64,000 nucleotides of DNA from Promethearchaeota archaeon (GCA_030603385.1 JAUVXW010000002.1:1-64000), one strand, 5' to 3'; shown: positions 7,663-57,665, counted from the stretch's first letter. The notes: generated from the sequence alone by a model not told the origin. A program made the numbers and translations.

Positions 7663-7833
7663 TGAGGTAGAAACTCCCCTAATATTTCTCAGAGATCATT
7701 AATTTTAAATGGTAAATGACTCAATTTTAATGAAATAATGTAATTATTAATTGAATAAAATAGTATCTATTAACCATTTCAAGTACGATTTTTAAATAAG
7801 TATTAATTCAGATTGAGATTAATTTCAAGAAAT

Positions 7834-8706
7834 CTATTCAATTTCTAATAATTGCTCCCAATATTCTTTTACATTCCACTCTTTATTTACCTTTATTTTA
7901 GATGCGATTTTGCTAAGAACATCTCTAATCATTTTCGATTGTAAATAATGAGAATTGGGAGTAATTGCACAAAGCATAAATGTTCCTGCTTCGTCTTGCG
8001 AATTATCCCCCATTTTATCCACTAATGCATAAGCATCTACTAAATCTCTTACCACTCTGAGTGTAAATTGGCTTGATTCTGACAGTTCTTCGAATTTATA
8101 CATTTTTATTAGTGTAGAATATAATTGAGAAGTGAGATCTTTGAGATTAAGTGAAGGAATTTCATTTTTTGGATAATAATCCTTTAATACTGGTTCAGAT
8201 TCGTTATTCCAAGTCATATAAAAGATATAAAAGAAATCAGCTCTCCTATGTTTCTTTAGAGATGGTTCTTCAAATTTCAATATTTCTTTTAATTCCTCTT
8301 CTAAAATCTTGGAATCTTTACTAATTTTAATGTGTTTTTTTAAAGTTTTTTTGATTCTTTTCAATAATTCTTTAGCTTTAAATGGTTTGGTGATGTAATC
8401 ATCTGCTCCAAGCATTTTACCGAATCTTACGTCATCAGGTTCAGCTTTACCTGATAAAAAGAAGAAAGGAATCCTTGACCATTCAGAATTTTCAGCTACC
8501 TTCATGTAGAAGTCATAACCATCCATTTCTGGCATTAATATATCACTTATTATAAGATCTGGTAGAAATTCAATATTCGAGAGAATTTCTAATCCTTCTT
8601 TCCCATTGAAAGCAGAAATTAATTTAAAATCATTCATTTCCATGAATATTTTTAAATTTTGGACAAGCACATCATCAGCTTCGACTAAAAAGACAGTAGG
8701 TTCCAT
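7834..8706 (-). CDS. Response regulator: receiver domain plus uncharacterised C-terminal domain
   Basis: PDLIISDILMPEMDG, FLSGK, GADDYITKPF; the C-terminal ~130 aa are not an HTH. Confidence 0.85.
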   Translation of the reverse strand: MEPTVFLVEADDVLVQNLKIFMEMNDFKLISAFNGKEGLEILSNIEFLPDLIISDILMPEMDGYDFYMKVAENSEWSRIPFFFLSGKAEPDDVRFGKMLGADDYITKPFKAKELLKRIKKTLKKHIKISKDSKILEEELKEILKFEEPSLKKHRRADFFYIFYMTWNNESEPVLKDYYPKNEIPSLNLKDLTSQLYSTLIKMYKFEELSESSQFTLRVVRDLVDAYALVDKMGDNSQDEAGTFMLCAITPNSHYLQSKMIRDVLSKIASKIKVNKEWNVKEYWEQLLEIE

Positions 8707-8835
8707 AATTAATAACTCTGTTATTTAAAATTGCAATAATAAGACTCCTCTATAATAAAAGAATAAATATTTAACATTTGTGAAAATGAAAATCTTTTAA
8801 ATACTAATGGTTTAAATTTGGATCAAATCTCCAAA

Positions 8836-10347
8836 TTAATCGTCAAAACATAAAACTCCGGGATTTAATATATTATTAGGGTCAAATATCTTTTTTACCT
8901 TTTTTAAAGCTATTTGCGTTGAATCCATATGTCTTTTAAACACTTCTTTTGCCCATAAACCGTAAGGTCTATTAAAAAAAGCACCTTCATTCATGAGTTT
9001 AATACTTAGGTCCATAAATTTTTTATTTACACTTTTTAATGCCTCTTCATCTTTATGATCGTAGTAAATGTCAAATTCACAATGATAAGACGTTCCTTGA
9101 TTGATAGCTTGGATATAAACACCAAGATCTTCAGACACTTCGTTTTCTACTAAAGTGATAAATTCTGAAATCTTTTCAAAATTAGTAATAAAGAAAATAT
9201 CTTGAAAGCTTCCTTTTAATCTTTCTCTCCATGGATAAGAAGCTGAGCTATTTAAAGCATGAATAATCTCACTTTCACTTATAACACTTTCTCTTTTCAA
9301 ATGATCAAGTTTGAGATCGCTCAAAATTTCACTTAGATCTCCCTCTTGGTATGCGATTTTGTCGTTTGCTAAGTTACCACGACCTGCCAAAACAAATATT
9401 AAATTCCACTTAGTCAAAGAATTACTTAACTCTTTTATATCCTCAGATAATTGTTTAACCAAACAGGCTAAATTAATATTATTCAAAATTAACAATTCAT
9501 TACCTAACCGAAATTTTAACAATTGATGTTGAAGATTCAATAGATCTTGAATATTTTCTGCTTGGAAATGGATAACTTTTTGAACTGTAGGCATTAACTC
9601 TAACTTAAGAGTAACCCATGTTACTATTCCTAAGCTTCCTTGAGCTCCTTGTATTAATCTAAAGGGACTAAATTGAGTTGGTCCCATTGGATTTGTTTGT
9701 GCTTGACCGGATTTTTTTTGTTGCTTTATTGTTCCAGGACCGGCCGCAGTGCCAGTTCTAAAAAGATCTCCTGTTCCAAAAATCACTTCAGTGCATAATA
9801 AAGGATCAGAACTATCCCATTGATAACGAGGGATTGTCGTTGGTACTCTTTCAAGCGCTGTCGTAAGAACAGATTTACTATCTCTAGGATAAAGAGGTTG
9901 TAATATCTTTAAACCTTTTTTTTCAAGGATTGGAGTTAATTGACCAAATACAACTCCGGGTTCAACCATAATGACTCTATTTTTTCTATCAATATTTAAG
10001 ATTTTGTTCATTTTAGAAAGATCAACAATAATAGAATTGTCTTGTAGTGGAATTGTATCCCCATGATAACGTATAGGTGAACTTGAACTTATTGGAATTA
10101 CTGAAAATCCAAGCGAATTTGCTAATTTTAAGATTTTTTCAATTTGTTTGGCTTTATTTAACCACACAACATATTTTGGTATTTTCCCTTTAACAAAACT
10201 TAAATCTGTAGAATAACTTTCTAATACTTCAGGATCATTTGAAATAGATTTCGAACCACAGATTTTAACTAGTTTTTGGAATATCTGTTCTTCACTCATA
10301 ATTAATTTACTCTTATTGAAACCCTTTGCTTCATAAAATATTTCCAT
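8836..10347 (-). CDS. FAD-binding oxidoreductase (GlcD/VAO superfamily), second copy
   Basis: VDLSKMNKILNID, VEPGV, GAQGSLGIVT, KIFDPNNILNPG; the start may be MSEEQ at 10299. Confidence 0.9.
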   Translation of the reverse strand: MEIFYEAKGFNKSKLIMSEEQIFQKLVKICGSKSISNDPEVLESYSTDLSFVKGKIPKYVVWLNKAKQIEKILKLANSLGFSVIPISSSSPIRYHGDTIPLQDNSIIVDLSKMNKILNIDRKNRVIMVEPGVVFGQLTPILEKKGLKILQPLYPRDSKSVLTTALERVPTTIPRYQWDSSDPLLCTEVIFGTGDLFRTGTAAGPGTIKQQKKSGQAQTNPMGPTQFSPFRLIQGAQGSLGIVTWVTLKLELMPTVQKVIHFQAENIQDLLNLQHQLLKFRLGNELLILNNINLACLVKQLSEDIKELSNSLTKWNLIFVLAGRGNLANDKIAYQEGDLSEILSDLKLDHLKRESVISESEIIHALNSSASYPWRERLKGSFQDIFFITNFEKISEFITLVENEVSEDLGVYIQAINQGTSYHCEFDIYYDHKDEEALKSVNKKFMDLSIKLMNEGAFFNRPYGLWAKEVFKRHMDSTQIALKKVKKIFDPNNILNPGVLCFDD

Positions 10348-52375: not shown

Positions 52376-53371
52376 TCATGTTTTATTTTTCCATTTGTTA
52401 AAAGAGCCAAATCCCTCGACTTTTGAAATAACTTGTTTTGTATTTTTATTAAAATTAATTGAGAGAAAATAGGAAGATTTGTTTCGTTTTAGGGATTTAT
52501 GTTGTATACCGTGTGAATAACTTTCAGCCAAAATTAGAACAACATTAATTAAATCTTCACTTTCATGAATAAAAGGAATTATTAGACTCCACTTATGAAA
52601 GAACCTATATTCAGAACTAATTCTTTTAGCTAATTCATAAAAAATCATTTGATTTGAGTCTTTTAAAATAGTCTGATTTACGATGTCTTGCTTTTTCAAG
52701 GAAAAAATAAATCTCTTTTTTAATTTAAATGTGAGGTTGTTATTAGTATTATCATTCTCATAAATTAAATAGAAGAATGGCAAAAAACCAGGGATGTATT
52801 GCTGATTCTTAGGTAAGCTTACTTGAATTATGATTCTTAGTAAAGTTCGAATTCCAAAATAAATAAGGTAAATATATAAGTAGAAAAAAGCAAGATCCAT
52901 AAATACATTATAATAGGGTTTTGTATAGTAATATATAATTAGAACTAAAAGATTTAAACCAGAAAAAGCAGCTAATAATGGGTTGACTGCTCTATCAGCA
53001 AAAAAGCGATACTCTTTTTTGGAAATGGGGTAAATAATCGGTATTTTTGAAGCAGCAAAGAAATCTAAGGAGATATGAATACTATAACCTATAAATCCTG
53101 CGAGCCAGACCTCAGAAAATGAAATATTTCTTAATAGAGATACAACAAAACCAACTATTCCCGTAAAAAATATTCCGACGATATATGAATGGGAACCTGC
53201 TTTATGGGAAAAAAAGTACATTTTCCGTATTTTTTGAAGTGGTTCTAAGAATACATCAAAATCCGGCAGAAATGTCATTATCCATAATAGGATAATCGCT
53301 TCTGGACTAAAAGTAGTTAATGTGAATAATCCCGCTAATACTCCCATAAATATATGTGTGAAAATATCCAT
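52376..53371 (-). CDS. Membrane metal-dependent hydrolase (YdjM-like)
   Basis: MDIFTH, LPDFD, HKAGSHS, HISLD. Confidence 0.8.
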   Translation of the reverse strand: MDIFTHIFMGVLAGLFTLTTFSPEAIILLWIMTFLPDFDVFLEPLQKIRKMYFFSHKAGSHSYIVGIFFTGIVGFVVSLLRNISFSEVWLAGFIGYSIHISLDFFAASKIPIIYPISKKEYRFFADRAVNPLLAAFSGLNLLVLIIYYYTKPYYNVFMDLAFFYLYIYLIYFGIRTLLRIIIQVSLPKNQQYIPGFLPFFYLIYENDNTNNNLTFKLKKRFIFSLKKQDIVNQTILKDSNQMIFYELAKRISSEYRFFHKWSLIIPFIHESEDLINVVLILAESYSHGIQHKSLKRNKSSYFLSINFNKNTKQVISKVEGFGSFNKWKNKT

Positions 53372-53426
53372 ATAAGGTTTAAAAATAAGACGATATATTT
53401 ATACAATTCTATTAAATTTATAATTT

Positions 53427-53443
53427 ATAGGAGGCTTTCCTAT
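53427..53443 (-). terminator. Short hairpin immediately 3' of the SECIS (possible terminator or stabiliser)
   Basis: Minus strand AUAGGA-AAGCC-UCCUAU. Confidence 0.35.
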
Positions 53444-53444
53444 T

Positions 53445-53480
53445 GTCAATCTTTCACTAGCGTTTATTGAAAGACTTCAT
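53445..53480 (-). promoter_or_regulatory. Eukaryote/Loki-type SECIS element in the 3' UTR
   Basis: Minus strand AUGAA-GUCUUUCA-AUAAACGCUAG-UGAAAGAU-UGAC: AUGA…GA kink-turn core, paired helix II, apical AAA; begins 9 nt after the TAA stop. Confidence 0.8.
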
Positions 53481-53488
53481 TCAAATTA

Positions 53489-53965
53489 TTATATGTTTCT
53501 TTTGAGTTCAAAATAATGAGTAAAAGTTTCATTGTTTTTTCCATAGTTTTGCTTAATGATTTTTTTAAATGTACCATAATCTAATCGTTCTTTCATAACA
53601 TCAGCTCATCAATCTGCATGGACTACAATAGTAATATTACTATTGGGATATAATTTAGTTTTAATATCTTCTTGTAAGTTCATAAATTCTCTATTTGGAC
53701 CATATGCGTTTACAGCACAGTCCTCATAAATTCTATCCTCCGCTCCATCCCAAATCAACTGCAAATAGCTATGAATCAAACCCTTATATACGGGGAATAG
53801 AGAACCTTCAGGATTCATATAGATTTGTTTATCTATAGCGCTTAGCGCGTTAACAATAGTTCCATTGTCATCTATATTTATCTCATATTCTCGTCCCTTT
53901 GACAACTTTTTTTCAGGGTCGGGAGCAAAAATTGTTATGTTCACTTTCTTAATTTTAATAATCAC
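53489..53965 (-). CDS. Putative selenoprotein: MoaD/SAMP-like beta-grasp protein with tandem Sec-Sec (158 aa with readthrough; 118 aa if UGA is a stop)
   Basis: …LYPNSNITIVVHAD-TGA(53609-11)-TGA(53606-08)-ADVMKERLDYGTFKKIIKQNYGKNNETFTHYFELKRNI-TAA TAA, followed by the SECIS; exact start codon uncertain. Confidence 0.72.
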
Positions 53966-53988
53966 CTCTAAATAATAATAAAAATAAA

Positions 53989-54396
53989 TTAAATAAGCCC
54001 TTTAGCTTTCAAGAGCCTTGGTAATTCTCTCTTTAGAGTAAATGAAGAAGAAAACTTTTTCTCTCCATCAACTACAATACATTTATTATGTAAATTAAGA
54101 TTTCTTGCTTCTACTGAATTAAGATTCTTAGTATCATAATCGATGTGTTTAATATAGGGTGTAAGTTCGACAAATACTCGATTCATAAACTTGTCCCACT
54201 CACAAGTGCATGCATCTAATGGAACGTAAATGTCAACTTTCAATTTTCCATTATTTTCTTCATTATCTGAGCTACATTTATTTTGAGAACATTGCGTATC
54301 TGAGTGAGCACTACAAGAGTGTCCTGAATAATCTGGCGATGCACGAATTTCTTTCATAACTTCCTCTATTGTTTTATCTATTTCATCATCAGACAT
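53989..54396 (-). CDS. Cys-rich thioredoxin-fold/ArsD-like protein in the acr3 operon
   Basis: His/Cys-rich linker (HSCSAHSDTQCSQNKC), then KVDIYVPLDACTCEW…CIVVDGEK. Confidence 0.6.
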   Translation of the reverse strand: MSDDEIDKTIEEVMKEIRASPDYSGHSCSAHSDTQCSQNKCSSDNEENNGKLKVDIYVPLDACTCEWDKFMNRVFVELTPYIKHIDYDTKNLNSVEARNLNLHNKCIVVDGEKKFSSSFTLKRELPRLLKAKGLI

Positions 54397-54468
54397 ATCT
54401 TAGTGTTTCCTCTTTTTTATTTATTAATAACTCTTCTAAAAAATATATTTTTTAGGTATTTTTATTTA

Positions 54469-55503
54469 TTATGATTCCCAAAAACCTCGTTTTCTGAGAT
54501 ATCGTCCTAAATAGACAATTGAAAGCATCACAGGTATCTCCCAAAAAAGCCCCATTGTAGTCCCTAAAGCTGCCCATGATCCAATTCCATAAATGGCAAT
54601 AGCAGTAGCAATCGCAATTTCAAAATGACTAGAAGAACCGATTATGACCGTGATAATTGCCTCTCTATACTTCAATTTAATGAGTTTTGTAATTAAAATA
54701 TTGTACCCAACAACAATAACAAACCCTACTAAGAGAGGAATTGATATTATTAACAATAAATCAGGATTACGTATCAGAACATCACCATTTAATGAAAATA
54801 AGACAACTAAAGTTGTTAGTAAGGCAATAATTGATATATTTCCTACAATTGGACGATAAGCGTTATTAAACCAATCTTCACCTTTAGAAGATACAATCAA
54901 TCTTTTACTGATTAATCCCCCTAATAACGGAAGTCCTATAAAAATGAATGTCGAAATTAATAAAAGAAACCAATTAATTGGTATATTTTGAATACCTGTT
55001 AGCAGCATTACCATAGGAGCATAACCAAATATAATTGTTATGGTATTTAGGCTTGTATTAATCACATTTTGCTCTTGGTTACCTTTTGCCATCCAACCCC
55101 ACACTAAAACCATTGCAGTGCAAGGAGAACTGGAGAGTAAAATAATTGCAACAGTTAACTGTCTCATAGTTTCAGAACTACCAGGTAAAAAGATATTCAC
55201 CATCGCCAAGCCAACAAACGGAGCAATAATCCAATTAGAAATAATTGTTAAAATTATTGGTTTAGGATTTCTACCTAATTTTTTCAACTCAGAAGCTTGA
55301 AGATTCAGCATTGCTGGATACATCATTAAAAATAAACAAATCCCAACAGGTACAGAAATTCCACCAATCTGTAAAGAATCAATAGCTTCACTGATACCGG
55401 GGATAATTTGAGAAAAGATAATTCCGATAAGTATACATAGAGCAACCCAAAGGGGCAAGAATTTCTCAAAAAAACTGATTGTGCGACCTTCTTCTTCGCT
55501 CAT
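54469..55503 (-). CDS. acr3: Arsenite efflux transporter Acr3
   Basis: FFEKFLPLWV, LMMYP, NWIIAP, PCTAMVLVW, SSHFEIAIA, EIPVML. Confidence 0.93.
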   Translation of the reverse strand: MSEEEGRTISFFEKFLPLWVALCILIGIIFSQIIPGISEAIDSLQIGGISVPVGICLFLMMYPAMLNLQASELKKLGRNPKPIILTIISNWIIAPFVGLAMVNIFLPGSSETMRQLTVAIILLSSSPCTAMVLVWGWMAKGNQEQNVINTSLNTITIIFGYAPMVMLLTGIQNIPINWFLLLISTFIFIGLPLLGGLISKRLIVSSKGEDWFNNAYRPIVGNISIIALLTTLVVLFSLNGDVLIRNPDLLLIISIPLLVGFVIVVGYNILITKLIKLKYREAIITVIIGSSSHFEIAIATAIAIYGIGSWAALGTTMGLFWEIPVMLSIVYLGRYLRKRGFWES

Positions 55504-55559
55504 GTTATCACGTTTTATTGATGTAATTTAATAGTAAATTTATATATTTAAAAAAATAA

Positions 55560-55583
55560 ATAGACAAATTTAAATTTATCTAT
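55560..55583. promoter_or_regulatory. Candidate ArsR operator palindrome between divergent acr3 and arsR
   Basis: ATAGACAAATTTAAATTTATCTAT; 22 of 24 positions palindromic. Confidence 0.5.
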
Positions 55584-55624
55584 ATGATATTATATAGCAT
55601 ATATAGACAGATTTTACAATAATT

Positions 55625-55975
55625 ATGGTTGAACAGAATAAAGACGATATTAAAACACTAATCGAATGTATTGGATTAGATGTAGATGTTCATGAATATA
55701 TAAAAAGTCTAGAAAAAAGCCGTAATGAGATTTTATCAAGAAAAGATTTTAAAGAAAAAGTGATTTCTCATAAAGCACTTGGTCATGGGTCAAGATATTT
55801 AATCTATAATCTAATTAAGAAAAAAGAAATGTGTATATGTGAACTTTCTATGATTATAGATTTAACTCAACCAACTATCTCTCATCATGTAAAAATATTG
55901 GAACAGGCTGGGTTGATAAATGGAGTAAAAAGTGGAAAGTTTATTCATTATCAAGTAAAAAAAAATATCGATTAA
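55625..55975 (+). CDS. arsR: ArsR/SmtB transcriptional regulator
   Basis: KALGHGSR, EMCICEL (alpha3 As-binding motif), TQPTISHHVKIL. Confidence 0.88.
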   Translation: MVEQNKDDIKTLIECIGLDVDVHEYIKSLEKSRNEILSRKDFKEKVISHKALGHGSRYLIYNLIKKKEMCICELSMIIDLTQPTISHHVKILEQAGLINGVKSGKFIHYQVKKNID

Positions 55976-56123: not shown

Positions 56124-56387
56124 GTGAAAATAATGGCGAAACTGGTTCCAGATACCGAAGAAAGCATGAATGAATGCAGAAAATTCTGCGGACCTTGTCC
56201 CTCGTTTAAACCAAACAAACTCAATGAGTTTGAGCCACACGCCCTGTTTTGTTCCAGAGGACAAACTGAAAAACCTATGGATCAAGTAGAAGATAAAGGT
56301 TGTAGTTGTTTTGGATGTGGATTATTCTCTCAATATGAGTTAAAGGGTGGATATTTCTGCATGCACGGAATTGAGGGAAGAAAATAA
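56124..56387 (+). CDS. DUF2769-like Cys-rich small protein
   Basis: CRKFCGPCPSF, LFCSRG, GCSCFGC, YFCMHG; followed by a T14 tract at 56407-56420. Confidence 0.75.
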   Translation: MKIMAKLVPDTEESMNECRKFCGPCPSFKPNKLNEFEPHALFCSRGQTEKPMDQVEDKGCSCFGCGLFSQYELKGGYFCMHGIEGRK

Positions 56388-56454: not shown

Positions 56455-56562
56455 ATGAATATTTTAAATGAACAAGTATTTCAAAAATTAATGAGAATTA
56501 ATAATCAGAACCAGGTAGGATTTCTTACCTTTAATTGCTGTATTTTTGGTTGTTGTTGTTAA
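56455..56562 (+). CDS. Cys-rich leader peptide (uORF) upstream of cysteine synthase
   Basis: MNILNEQVFQKLMRINNQNQVGFLTFNCCIFGCCC*; 5 Cys in the last 8 codons; alternative ATG at 56491. Confidence 0.65.
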   Translation: MNILNEQVFQKLMRINNQNQVGFLTFNCCIFGCCC

Positions 56563-56648: not shown

Positions 56649-57665
56649 ATGAATACTAAAATTAGGGATGTCAAAATGAAGTCAGCATCATATAATAATA
56701 GAAAAGGGAAAATAGGGATAAATAACAAATTACGAGTATATGAAAGAATTGAAGATTTAATTTCAAATAGAGAAAATCCTTCACCGTTAGTTAAATTGAA
56801 TGAAAGAATTAATCCGAATAAAAGATTTCCAATTTACATCAAATTGGAACGTTATAATCCTTTTGGATCAATTAAAGATAGGGTTGCTTATGCTATGCTT
56901 AAAGATGTTATATTTAAGGAGGGACAACGTATCATAGAGCCTTCATCTGGAAACACAGGAATAGCATTAGCTTCTTTAGCGAACGCAAGAGGGATTCCTA
57001 TTGAAATTGCTGTACCAAGTAGAATTCCAGAAGAAAAAAAAATACTTTTAAAATTACTTGGTGTGAAAGAATTATGGGAAGCTGATGATAACCTATGCCC
57101 TAAATTCCCTAACGAAGGCGCAAGAGGTGTAGTAAATGGAATTTTAATTAGTAAGGGAGGAGAACGATATTTTAATCCAGATCAATATGGAAATGACTTA
57201 AATGTAGAGGCTCATTATAGAACCACAGGTCCGGAAATCTGGGAGCAAACCAATGGAGAAATTGATTATTTTTTCGCAGCTACAGGTACAGGTGGCACTA
57301 TTACGGGAGTTGGGAAATATTTAAAAGAAAAAAAGCCGTCTATTAAAATTTTAGGGGTAGAACCATCAAATACAATACATAATATACCTGGTTTGAAGAG
57401 AATAACTGACCTTGATGATGAATTAATTCCGAAAATTTTAGATAAATCGGTAATTGATGAAATCTTAGAGGTAAGTGATGATAGAGCATATCAAACTGGT
57501 ATTGAATTGGCAAGGAAAAATGGTATCCTGGTAGGCCCTTCTACAGGTGCGATTTTAGCTGCCGCTCTGAAATTTGCTAAATCTCATGTCGGGTTAGCTG
57601 TTATTATTGCACCTGATGATGCTGCCAAATATATTAGTTCTTATGCGCCGTACATTAAAAAATAA
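56649..57665 (+). CDS. cysK: Cysteine synthase family (CysK/CysM, PLP)
   Basis: KLERYNPFGSIKDR, EPSSGNTG, TTGPEIWEQT, GTGGT, GPSTG. Confidence 0.88.
   Translation: MNTKIRDVKMKSASYNNRKGKIGINNKLRVYERIEDLISNRENPSPLVKLNERINPNKRFPIYIKLERYNPFGSIKDRVAYAMLKDVIFKEGQRIIEPSSGNTGIALASLANARGIPIEIAVPSRIPEEKKILLKLLGVKELWEADDNLCPKFPNEGARGVVNGILISKGGERYFNPDQYGNDLNVEAHYRTTGPEIWEQTNGEIDYFFAATGTGGTITGVGKYLKEKKPSIKILGVEPSNTIHNIPGLKRITDLDDELIPKILDKSVIDEILEVSDDRAYQTGIELARKNGILVGPSTGAILAAALKFAKSHVGLAVIIAPDDAAKYISSYAPYIKK

Follow-up and report, generated by a model that had tools for sequence, protein, structure and literature searches.

In arsRDABC operons, ArsD is a small cytosolic As(III) chaperone with a thioredoxin fold, which carries three cysteines (Cys12-Cys13-Cys18) as its metalloid site and has the ArsA ATPase as its partner. 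This is the job that we propose here, in a conditional way, for two soluble proteins encoded by an arsenic-resistance locus at positions 53445-55975 of a Promethearchaeota archaeon sequence (GCA_030603385.1 JAUVXW010000002.1:1-64000; the whole stretch of 64,000 nt that was analysed is referred to as the window). The locus consists of arsR, acr3, a gene for a Cys-rich thioredoxin-fold protein (TRXL) and a gene for a beta-grasp protein interrupted by two adjacent UGA codons (the UU gene), which are almost certainly read as a selenocysteine pair (Sec–Sec). The likeness to ArsD concerns the proposed job: TRXL has C63-x-C65 (plus Cys107) instead of the ArsD site, and the proposed partner is the secondary carrier Acr3, with no arsA in the locus.

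As regards selenocysteine decoding, Mariotti et al. described the Lokiarchaeal selenocysteine insertion sequence (lokiSECIS) as an AUGA followed by a 9-bp stem, an 11-nt loop with an A-rich start and an (A)G end, and a GA, located near the stop codon (PMC4989117). The Lokiarchaeal selenoprotein genes HdrA, VhuD, VhuU, PrxL and SPS carry this element directly after the stop (PMC4989117), as does the UU gene, and the use of one SECIS for more than one UGA is shared with PrxL.1 and HdrA-VhuD. The published families, five Lokiarchaeal (PMC4989117) and seven Asgard (PMC11227280), are all redox enzymes or SelD. The UU gene differs from these Asgard selenoproteins in its adjacent Sec pair, in that no Cys form was found, and in an extra hairpin after the SECIS.

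Three further groups of proteins invite comparison. MoaD, ThiS, CysO, Urm1 and SAMP have their fold in common with the UU product, in which the reactive group would likewise sit at the end of the last strand, as does the Gly-Gly thiocarboxylate of the carriers; unlike them, the UU protein has no Gly-Gly, continues for 38 residues, matches no Pfam model and has no E1-like gene nearby. Bacterial selenoproteins with a predicted metal-binding Sec include MbdU (CU motif), SaoB/SaoC and the Sec forms of MerP/MerT (PMC13188914). For these proteins, too, a metal(loid)-ligand role of Sec, as opposed to redox catalysis, has been proposed in a resistance or efflux context, but they are bacterial, have unrelated folds and a bacterial SECIS, and their NCBIfam models do not match the UU protein. 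Finally, the C-terminal Gly-Cys-Sec-Gly of thioredoxin reductase presents vicinal chalcogens on a flexible segment, much like the Gly-Cys-Sec-Sec of one UU subfamily (GC-UU, see below); thioredoxin reductase differs in having a flavoprotein domain, which the UU protein lacks, and the UU motif is internal and holds two Sec.

By comparison with these systems, the arsR and acr3 genes of the locus are ordinary and the SECIS is a standard lokiSECIS, whereas the accessory genes are new, one of them belonging to a new selenoprotein family. The Sec–Sec beta-grasp family is absent from the lists of PMC4989117 (2016) and PMC11227280 (2024), and was not found in the table of the 2026 review PMC13188914, as far as that table is searchable. 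No paper on a Sec–Sec, ubiquitin-like or arsenic-linked Asgard selenoprotein was found in the literature searched, with about 1.7 million PubMed Central articles and all subscription-only papers lying outside this search.

Organisation of the arsenic locus

The features of the locus, in window coordinates, are as follows.

55625-55975, plus strand: arsR, 116 aa, ArsR/SmtB metalloregulator with C70-x-C72 in helix alpha3
55504-55624, between the divergent genes: arsR-acr3 spacer, 121 nt, AT-rich, candidate operator and promoters
54469-55503, minus strand: acr3, 344 aa, ACR3-family arsenite efflux permease
53989-54396, minus strand: TRXL, thioredoxin-fold gene, 135 aa, D61-A-C63-T-C65-E-W67
53489-53965, minus strand: UU gene, Sec–Sec beta-grasp, 158 codons, predicted selenoprotein
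53606-53611, minus strand: tandem in-frame UGA (predicted Sec119-Sec120), TGA TGA after 118 codons
53446-53480, minus strand: lokiSECIS, 3' of the UU stop, matching the published features
53427-53443, minus strand: second conserved hairpin, directly after the SECIS

The arsR gene is divergent from acr3, which is followed on the minus strand by TRXL and the UU gene, in that order, with gaps of 72 nt (54397-54468) and 23 nt (53966-53988). This is exactly the arrangement given in the initial annotation of the window, and arsR, acr3, the Cys-rich thioredoxin-fold gene and the Sec–Sec beta-grasp gene form a real, conserved unit, as detailed below.

The arsR product matches Pfam HTH_5 (PF01022; E 4e-13) and, with 70 bits where the cut-off is 55, the NCBIfam model HTH_metalloreg NF033788. 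In an alignment with an ArsR from an E. coli plasmid (67 aa, 36% identical, E 5e-15), C70-I-C72 falls on the C-V-C of the As(III) site, and a Ser replaces the third Cys of the E. coli ELCVCDL-type motif. The coordinates, the HTH_5 match and this alignment all bear out the earlier description of a CxC-type ArsR divergent from acr3. The spacer between the two genes contains imperfect AT-rich palindromes (e.g. 55572-55585 and 55601-55614) which, in DNA that is itself AT-rich, weakly suggest a candidate operator. A scan with bacterial-type promoter and terminator models, which are ill-suited to an archaeon, gave no more matches than shuffled sequences.

The acr3 product matches Pfam SBF (E 5e-37) and scores 273.1 bits with TIGR00832, just below the cut-off of 282.8; an acr3 paralogue on another contig of the same genome (C10) reaches 285 bits, above the cut-off. 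The translation contains an SSPCTAMV segment, and thus the cysteine of the P-C-T-A-M-V segment that is conserved in Acr3 permeases.

Whole-genome scans confirmed that arsC, arsA and arsM are missing from the window. Only two LMWPc genes occur in the genome, on contigs C8 and C30, and the scans found no glutaredoxin (Grx)-type ArsC and no gene reaching the ArsM cut-off. The only full ArsA/Get3-type gene (C34:102763) encodes a single-domain protein and lies 39 kb beyond the window end. The absence of arsC is unremarkable, since acr3 is present in 294 of 400 Asgard genomes, the majority of which have no Sec–Sec gene. Modules of arsR and acr3 without arsC are usual in anoxic settings with a predominance of As(III).

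The tandem UGA is predicted to encode Sec–Sec

The UU gene starts at 53965 and runs through 118 codons to TGA TGA (53611-53606), which is followed by 38 in-frame codons and a TAA at 53491-53489. A search of 5.8 billion proteins returned 177 relatives, all from Asgard archaea where named. Nearly all of them are called as 118 residues ending in VHAD; seven longer public records, translated with TGA as Trp, align through the conserved tail. At the level of DNA, TGA-TGA is present in 59/59 genome loci (57/57 of the HAD-type) and in 84/84 distinct members over all the loci fetched, whereas the terminal stop varies among TAA, TGA and TAG. The family was found in 134 of the 400 Asgard genomes, all within families f1-f7 and 116 of them in this genome's own family, and every full-length match listed for these genomes has two or three TGAs. 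No homologue with Cys-Cys in place of Sec–Sec was detected in the 400 genomes or in the 5.8-billion-protein search.

The sequence behind the UGAs behaves as coding DNA. Specifically, over the 32 codons compared, pairwise differences at codon positions 1, 2 and 3 are 0.18, 0.15 and 0.37, to be set beside 0.19, 0.10 and 0.47 upstream, a periodicity of the kind shown by coding sequence. In addition, Ala121 and Asp122, which follow the UGAs and precede Met124, show conservation at the amino-acid level.

A SECIS element begins 6 nt after the UU stop, with AUGA at 53480-53477. The 9-bp stem is formed by 53476-53468 and 53456-53448 and encloses an 11-nt loop (53467-53457) with an A-rich start and an AG end; GA follows at 53447-53446. 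The element thus carries every published lokiSECIS feature (PMC4989117). It is present in 58/58 loci with sequence at that place, where pairing reaches 93% and 8 of 15 pairs show compensatory changes; none of 500 shuffles reached the observed covariation. A covariance model of this 3' element gave one match in the 64-kb window (87.5 bits, E 6e-16), one behind each paralogue, weaker matches behind distant homologues and none elsewhere in 282 kb. An Rfam scan of 53300-54000 (E up to 10) returned no SECIS family, the Rfam SECIS models excluding the Lokiarchaeal type. The signal points to both UGAs being decoded through this one lokiSECIS in the 3' untranslated region.

The second hairpin, AUAGGA/UCCUAU with a 5-nt loop, is 93.8% paired across the loci, and four of its six pairs are changed on both sides. 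It lies outside the lokiSECIS description of PMC4989117 and may belong to the Sec signal or to the transcript 3' end.

The genome also encodes the decoding machinery, namely a tRNA-Sec (63 bits, anticodon TCA) and, adjoining its gene, SepSecS (391 bits). The Sec–Sec reading already advanced in the initial annotation is therefore upheld by the invariant TGA-TGA, the coding tail, the lokiSECIS and the Sec machinery, and the tandem UGA almost certainly encodes Sec–Sec. A tandem TGA stop followed by a separate 35-codon gene starting from the ATG at 53596 would fit the near-invariance of Met124 in the HAD-type subfamily and the habit of gene callers to end the protein at Asp118, but we rejected this explanation and regard its chances as negligible, given that both codons are always TGA whereas true terminal stops vary, that start codons are missing behind the UGAs of GC-UU and distant members, that residues are conserved between the UGAs and Met124, and that a lokiSECIS lies behind every member in a genome equipped to insert Sec.

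A beta-grasp fold with a conserved third chalcogen

The UU protein is characterised by Cys83, the motif His116-Ala-Asp-Sec119-Sec120 and a 38-residue helical tail. Its AlphaFold2 (AF2) model (pLDDT 88, pTM 0.86) shows a beta-grasp domain at residues 1-118 plus helices. The best Foldseek matches of the model are Urm1, SAMP1, HVO_2177 and MoaD (E about 2e-3), and VIA-align ranks the transcobalamin beta domain (Z 7.3), CysO (7.1), SAMP1 (6.8) and MoaD (5.7-6.2). These Z values are middling, yet they agree on a beta-grasp fold and support it for the UU model, in line with what had been annotated from the sequence. No meaningful Pfam, NCBIfam or PDB match was obtained with single sequences or with profiles, and none of 49 UU members matched the ThiS/Urm1 Pfam models at E up to 10. 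Residues 1-81 of E. coli MoaD align to residues 7-120 of the model; therefore, Sec119-Sec120 would occupy the Gly-Gly position, that is, the exposed, flexible terminus of the carrier proteins.

Besides the Sec pair, a third chalcogen is a constant feature of the family. In the HAD-UU subfamily, Cys83 is found within a D-C-A motif in 58/58 members, whereas the 23 members of the GC-UU subfamily have Val, Ile or Leu at position 83 and a Cys directly before Sec–Sec. Among the 84 distinct members, 3 carry both cysteines and none carries neither. Every member thus combines Cys, Sec and Sec, a rule that reflects few independent events and is suggestive rather than statistical. In the AF2 model, the strand that opens with Cys83 and the final strand ahead of Sec119 are predicted to be paired, and because of this predicted pairing Cys83 would lie near Sec119 and Sec120.

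The thioredoxin-fold protein TRXL

TRXL is composed of a disordered Cys/His-rich N-terminus (about residues 1-50) fused to a thioredoxin-fold core (51-135). The core is modelled by AF2 with pLDDT >90, and VIA-align matches it to thioredoxins with Z up to 10.3 over residues 51-130. Across the alignment, VPLxxCxCxW is invariant in the core and a third cysteine, Cys107, is mostly conserved; the active-site motif is CxC, not CxxC, in 35/35 aligned members. The tails of the relatives are rich in Cys pairs, and many relatives encode the Cys/His-rich part and the core as separate genes, with TAA or TAG between them, instead of fused as in the window. The free-standing Cys/His-rich peptide of such relatives has 59-72 residues (L005:7418-7633 and others) and no family match.

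TRXL had initially been described as thioredoxin-like and ArsD-like. The thioredoxin fold is confirmed by the model, whereas kinship with ArsD in sequence was rejected: no match to the Pfam ArsD model PF06953 was found at E up to 10, and comparison of the TRXL profile with E. coli ArsD in hhalign gave a probability of 0.2%. ArsD is not among the 50 best VIA-align fold matches of TRXL either, which does not by itself exclude it. No Pfam, NCBIfam or PDB sequence match was found with single sequences or profiles. An ESM Atlas search returned hypothetical archaeal clusters and a weak match to PF13192 Thioredoxin_3 (0.86), which Pfam did not confirm.

Gene neighbourhood and distribution

The position of acr3 was surveyed in 59 loci with a UU gene, 53 of which are informative.

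acr3 upstream on the same strand, within 1.4 kb: 31 loci
acr3 upstream on the same strand, with a 2.4-4 kb insert: 13 loci
acr3 in another arrangement: 1 locus
no acr3, with at least 3 kb of upstream flank: 8 loci
too short to tell: 6 loci

Thus, acr3 lies upstream of the UU gene on the same strand in 44/53 informative loci, and the idea that homologues are rarely near acr3, raised beforehand as a way in which the proposal might fail, does not hold. Most of the related loci also have arsR, and in most of the 59 TRXL lies 27-160 nt upstream of the UU gene. The acr3-UU linkage survives inserted genes and altered downstream genes.

Some genomes have acr3-UU without TRXL; strong TRXL matches among the 400 Asgard genomes share the UU range (f1-f7), but weaker TRXL relatives are found close to acr3, a few kb away at most, in lineages that lack a Sec–Sec gene. 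Since each accessory gene occurs without the other, each is tied to acr3 on its own, and the two-protein relay first imagined for this locus is not supported as an obligate pair.

The gene inserted between acr3 and UU is usually a CpaM-HgcA-like corrinoid fusion, accompanied by an HgcB-like ferredoxin. The fusion protein scores 173 bits with NF043039 and 165 bits with NF040863, both below the cut-off. An example of 550 aa, joining a CpaM-like methyltransferase to an HgcA-like corrinoid protein, lies between acr3 and TRXL at L025:5507-7162, with the HgcB-like ferredoxin at L025:7215-7577; the same arrangement is seen in loci L035, L040 and L047. The insert is possibly a corrinoid-dependent metalloid methylation module inside the ars operon. 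For bacteria, it has been suggested that hgcAB is linked to ArsR and arsenic (bioRxiv 10.1101/2022.10.17.512643), and the HgcAB-like inserts are consistent with that theme.

The genome has a second arsenic locus, on contig C10:94000-111000 (L063), with two arsR genes, acr3 and, directly behind acr3, a GC-UU paralogue with its own SECIS (genes at L063 5851-8633 and 10259-11366). A TRXL paralogue lies 2.5 kb away, in a separate unit with a DGC-domain gene and a third ArsR. Many arsenic loci contain both HAD-UU and GC-UU paralogues at most 2 kb apart, each with a SECIS (L064:6538-7677, L065:6315-8568 and about ten more).

Distant members in other Asgard families keep TGA-TGA and the SECIS, but their neighbours differ. 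A UU gene with the motif PDAGC-UU is found directly downstream of a CDF cation-efflux gene in family f3 (L073, L083 and L086; the example in L073 spans 7806-10033), CDF being 2 kb away in f7, and directly downstream of an Na_H_Exchanger+CBS gene in f5 (L076 and L080), where it is followed by ferredoxin and tungsten-type aldehyde:ferredoxin oxidoreductase (AFOR) genes. In family f4, arsR and acr3 are beside UU, and in f2 the neighbours are AFOR and ferredoxin genes. The contexts of the CDF- and exchanger-linked members suggest a metal theme broader than arsenic alone.

Two further features lie on the arsR side of the locus. A Cys-rich DUF2769 gene (56124-56387, plus strand; Pfam 43.6 bits), 3' of arsR, is a possible further member of the locus, the arsR-DUF2769 adjacency being found in at least 11 related loci. 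A small open reading frame (56455-56562, plus strand) ends in a cysteine run (..NCCIFGCCC), just 5' of a cysteine-synthase-like gene (56649-57665).

Proposed As(III)-binding role and alternative explanations

In our favoured explanation, the locus would be an ArsR-controlled As(III) efflux module centred on Acr3, in which Lokiarchaeia-type Asgard archaea would employ two cytosolic accessory proteins, specific to the lineage, as soft-ligand binders of the metalloid. As(III) coordination in ArsR, ArsD and ArsA involves three soft ligands; in the UU protein, Sec119, Sec120 and Cys83 may form a three-ligand Se2S site, a geometry preferred by As(III). The Sec–Sec protein would capture cytosolic As(III) or Sb(III) and pass it to Acr3, or buffer it for this carrier. 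TRXL, through its CxC (plus Cys107) and its Cys/His-rich tail, would be a second As(III) binder or would keep the selenols reduced, and the two proteins may be in contact with each other. We infer that a selenium-based As(III)-binding role is the best reading of the locus; that soluble accessory proteins bind As(III), and buffer it or hand it to Acr3, has in our estimate an even chance of being correct.

The family as a whole allows a wider formulation. Because its neighbours include CDF and Na+/H+-type carriers and because Cys, Sec and Sec are universal, the UU protein may partner efflux pumps by binding soft metal(loid)s. The full form of this proposal, an Asgard family of ubiquitin-fold selenoproteins with an Se2S site for As(III) or soft metals, partnering Acr3, CDF and CPA carriers, we put forward tentatively, as plausible but somewhat short of an even chance.

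Several observations weigh against these proposals. In eight loci acr3 is missing from the neighbourhood even though the upstream flank covers 3 kb or more; the neighbouring genes there encode Rce1-like membrane proteins, flavodoxin, MFS and amidohydrolase proteins, which give no functional clue. YdjM and HD neighbours are conserved too, so that the synteny is partly shared descent within one genome family. Acr3 is found in 294/400 Asgard genomes against 134/400 for UU and thus works without both accessory proteins in most Asgard archaea. The 72-nt acr3-TRXL spacer holds a T6 run and an AT-rich box, a possible internal terminator and promoter. The closeness of Cys83 to Sec119 and Sec120 is deduced from the strand pairing of the model. 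Finally, the vicinal selenols could equally be a redox centre; a Sec–Sec diselenide would be hard to reduce.

Among the alternatives, the Sec–Sec protein might be a gating or regulatory subunit that responds to a soft metal(loid) or to the redox state by switching Acr3, CDF or CPA carriers on or off, without delivering a substrate. The location of members directly downstream of three unrelated transporter families without a common substrate speaks for such a role, which accounts for the CDF and CPA contexts equally well, and the fold matches are to beta-grasp domains, which are often protein–protein adaptors. However, the Cys, Sec and Sec triad is equally required by a binding and hand-off site, so that the two readings overlap, and in an inspection that was not detailed the transporters of these loci have no obvious extra docking domain. 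We consider a purely regulatory function unlikely.

In a redox relay, Sec119-Sec120 (with Cys83) would cycle between selenol and diselenide or selenenylsulfide forms, in the manner of the Gly-Cys-Sec-Gly of thioredoxin reductase, and be recharged by the CxC of TRXL; the pair would reduce an arsenical, such as a pentavalent organoarsenical or a thioarsenate, or repair As(III)-blocked dithiols ahead of export. The thioredoxin-fold gene directly upstream of UU, at gaps of 23-90 nt, the redox-active element on a flexible terminus, the Gly-Cys-Sec-Sec of some GC-UU members, which recalls GCUG, and the ferredoxin and corrinoid genes in the same operon in some relatives would all agree with this function. 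Nevertheless, the TRXL motif is CxC and not CxxC, UU occurs with acr3 in the absence of TRXL and TRXL relatives in the absence of UU, no substrate-binding motif of any known arsenate reductase is present, and the CDF and CPA contexts require no reductase. Taken together, these points make a redox relay improbable.

Still less probable is a MoaD-like carrier unrelated to arsenic, whose Sec–Sec would hold or transfer selenium or sulfur, perhaps in cofactor or Sec metabolism, and whose proximity to acr3 would be a matter of inherited gene order. The nearest folds are indeed the sulfur carriers CysO, MoaD, SAMP1 and Urm1, and some distant members adjoin tungstopterin AFOR genes; against this, the protein has no free Gly-Gly terminus, no E1-like gene is present in the loci examined, the contexts are dominated by transporter neighbours, and one genome has acr3 linked to UU at two paralogous loci, a linkage that family f4 shows too and that persists through insertions.

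That one or both accessory proteins substitute for ArsC, reducing As(V) to As(III) for Acr3, might be suggested by a window without arsC and by the selenoprotein ArsC homologues known in bacteria (PMC13188914), but it is highly improbable. Neither sequence has the CX5R loop, a P-loop or any similarity to the known reductases, whether of the low-molecular-weight protein tyrosine phosphatase, Grx or Cdc25 type; two LMWPc genes are available elsewhere in the genome, and arsC-less modules are, as noted above, nothing unusual. The arsenate reductase role envisaged in the initial annotation is accordingly not sustained, and the As(III)-binding role remains the reading that we prefer.

Significance

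The data have a practical consequence for annotation, as gene callers end the UU protein after 118 residues in almost every public record. The locus is also a compact four-gene system that lends itself to heterologous arsenic-resistance assays, and the UU family provides a test of how one SECIS serves back-to-back UGA codons. To our knowledge, Acr3 is otherwise thought to work alone; if the accessory proteins do bind As(III), this permease would have a chaperone-type partner, and selenium would serve as a metal(loid) ligand. In either case, the Asgard selenoproteome would gain a widespread family with two adjacent Sec residues and no Cys form detected.

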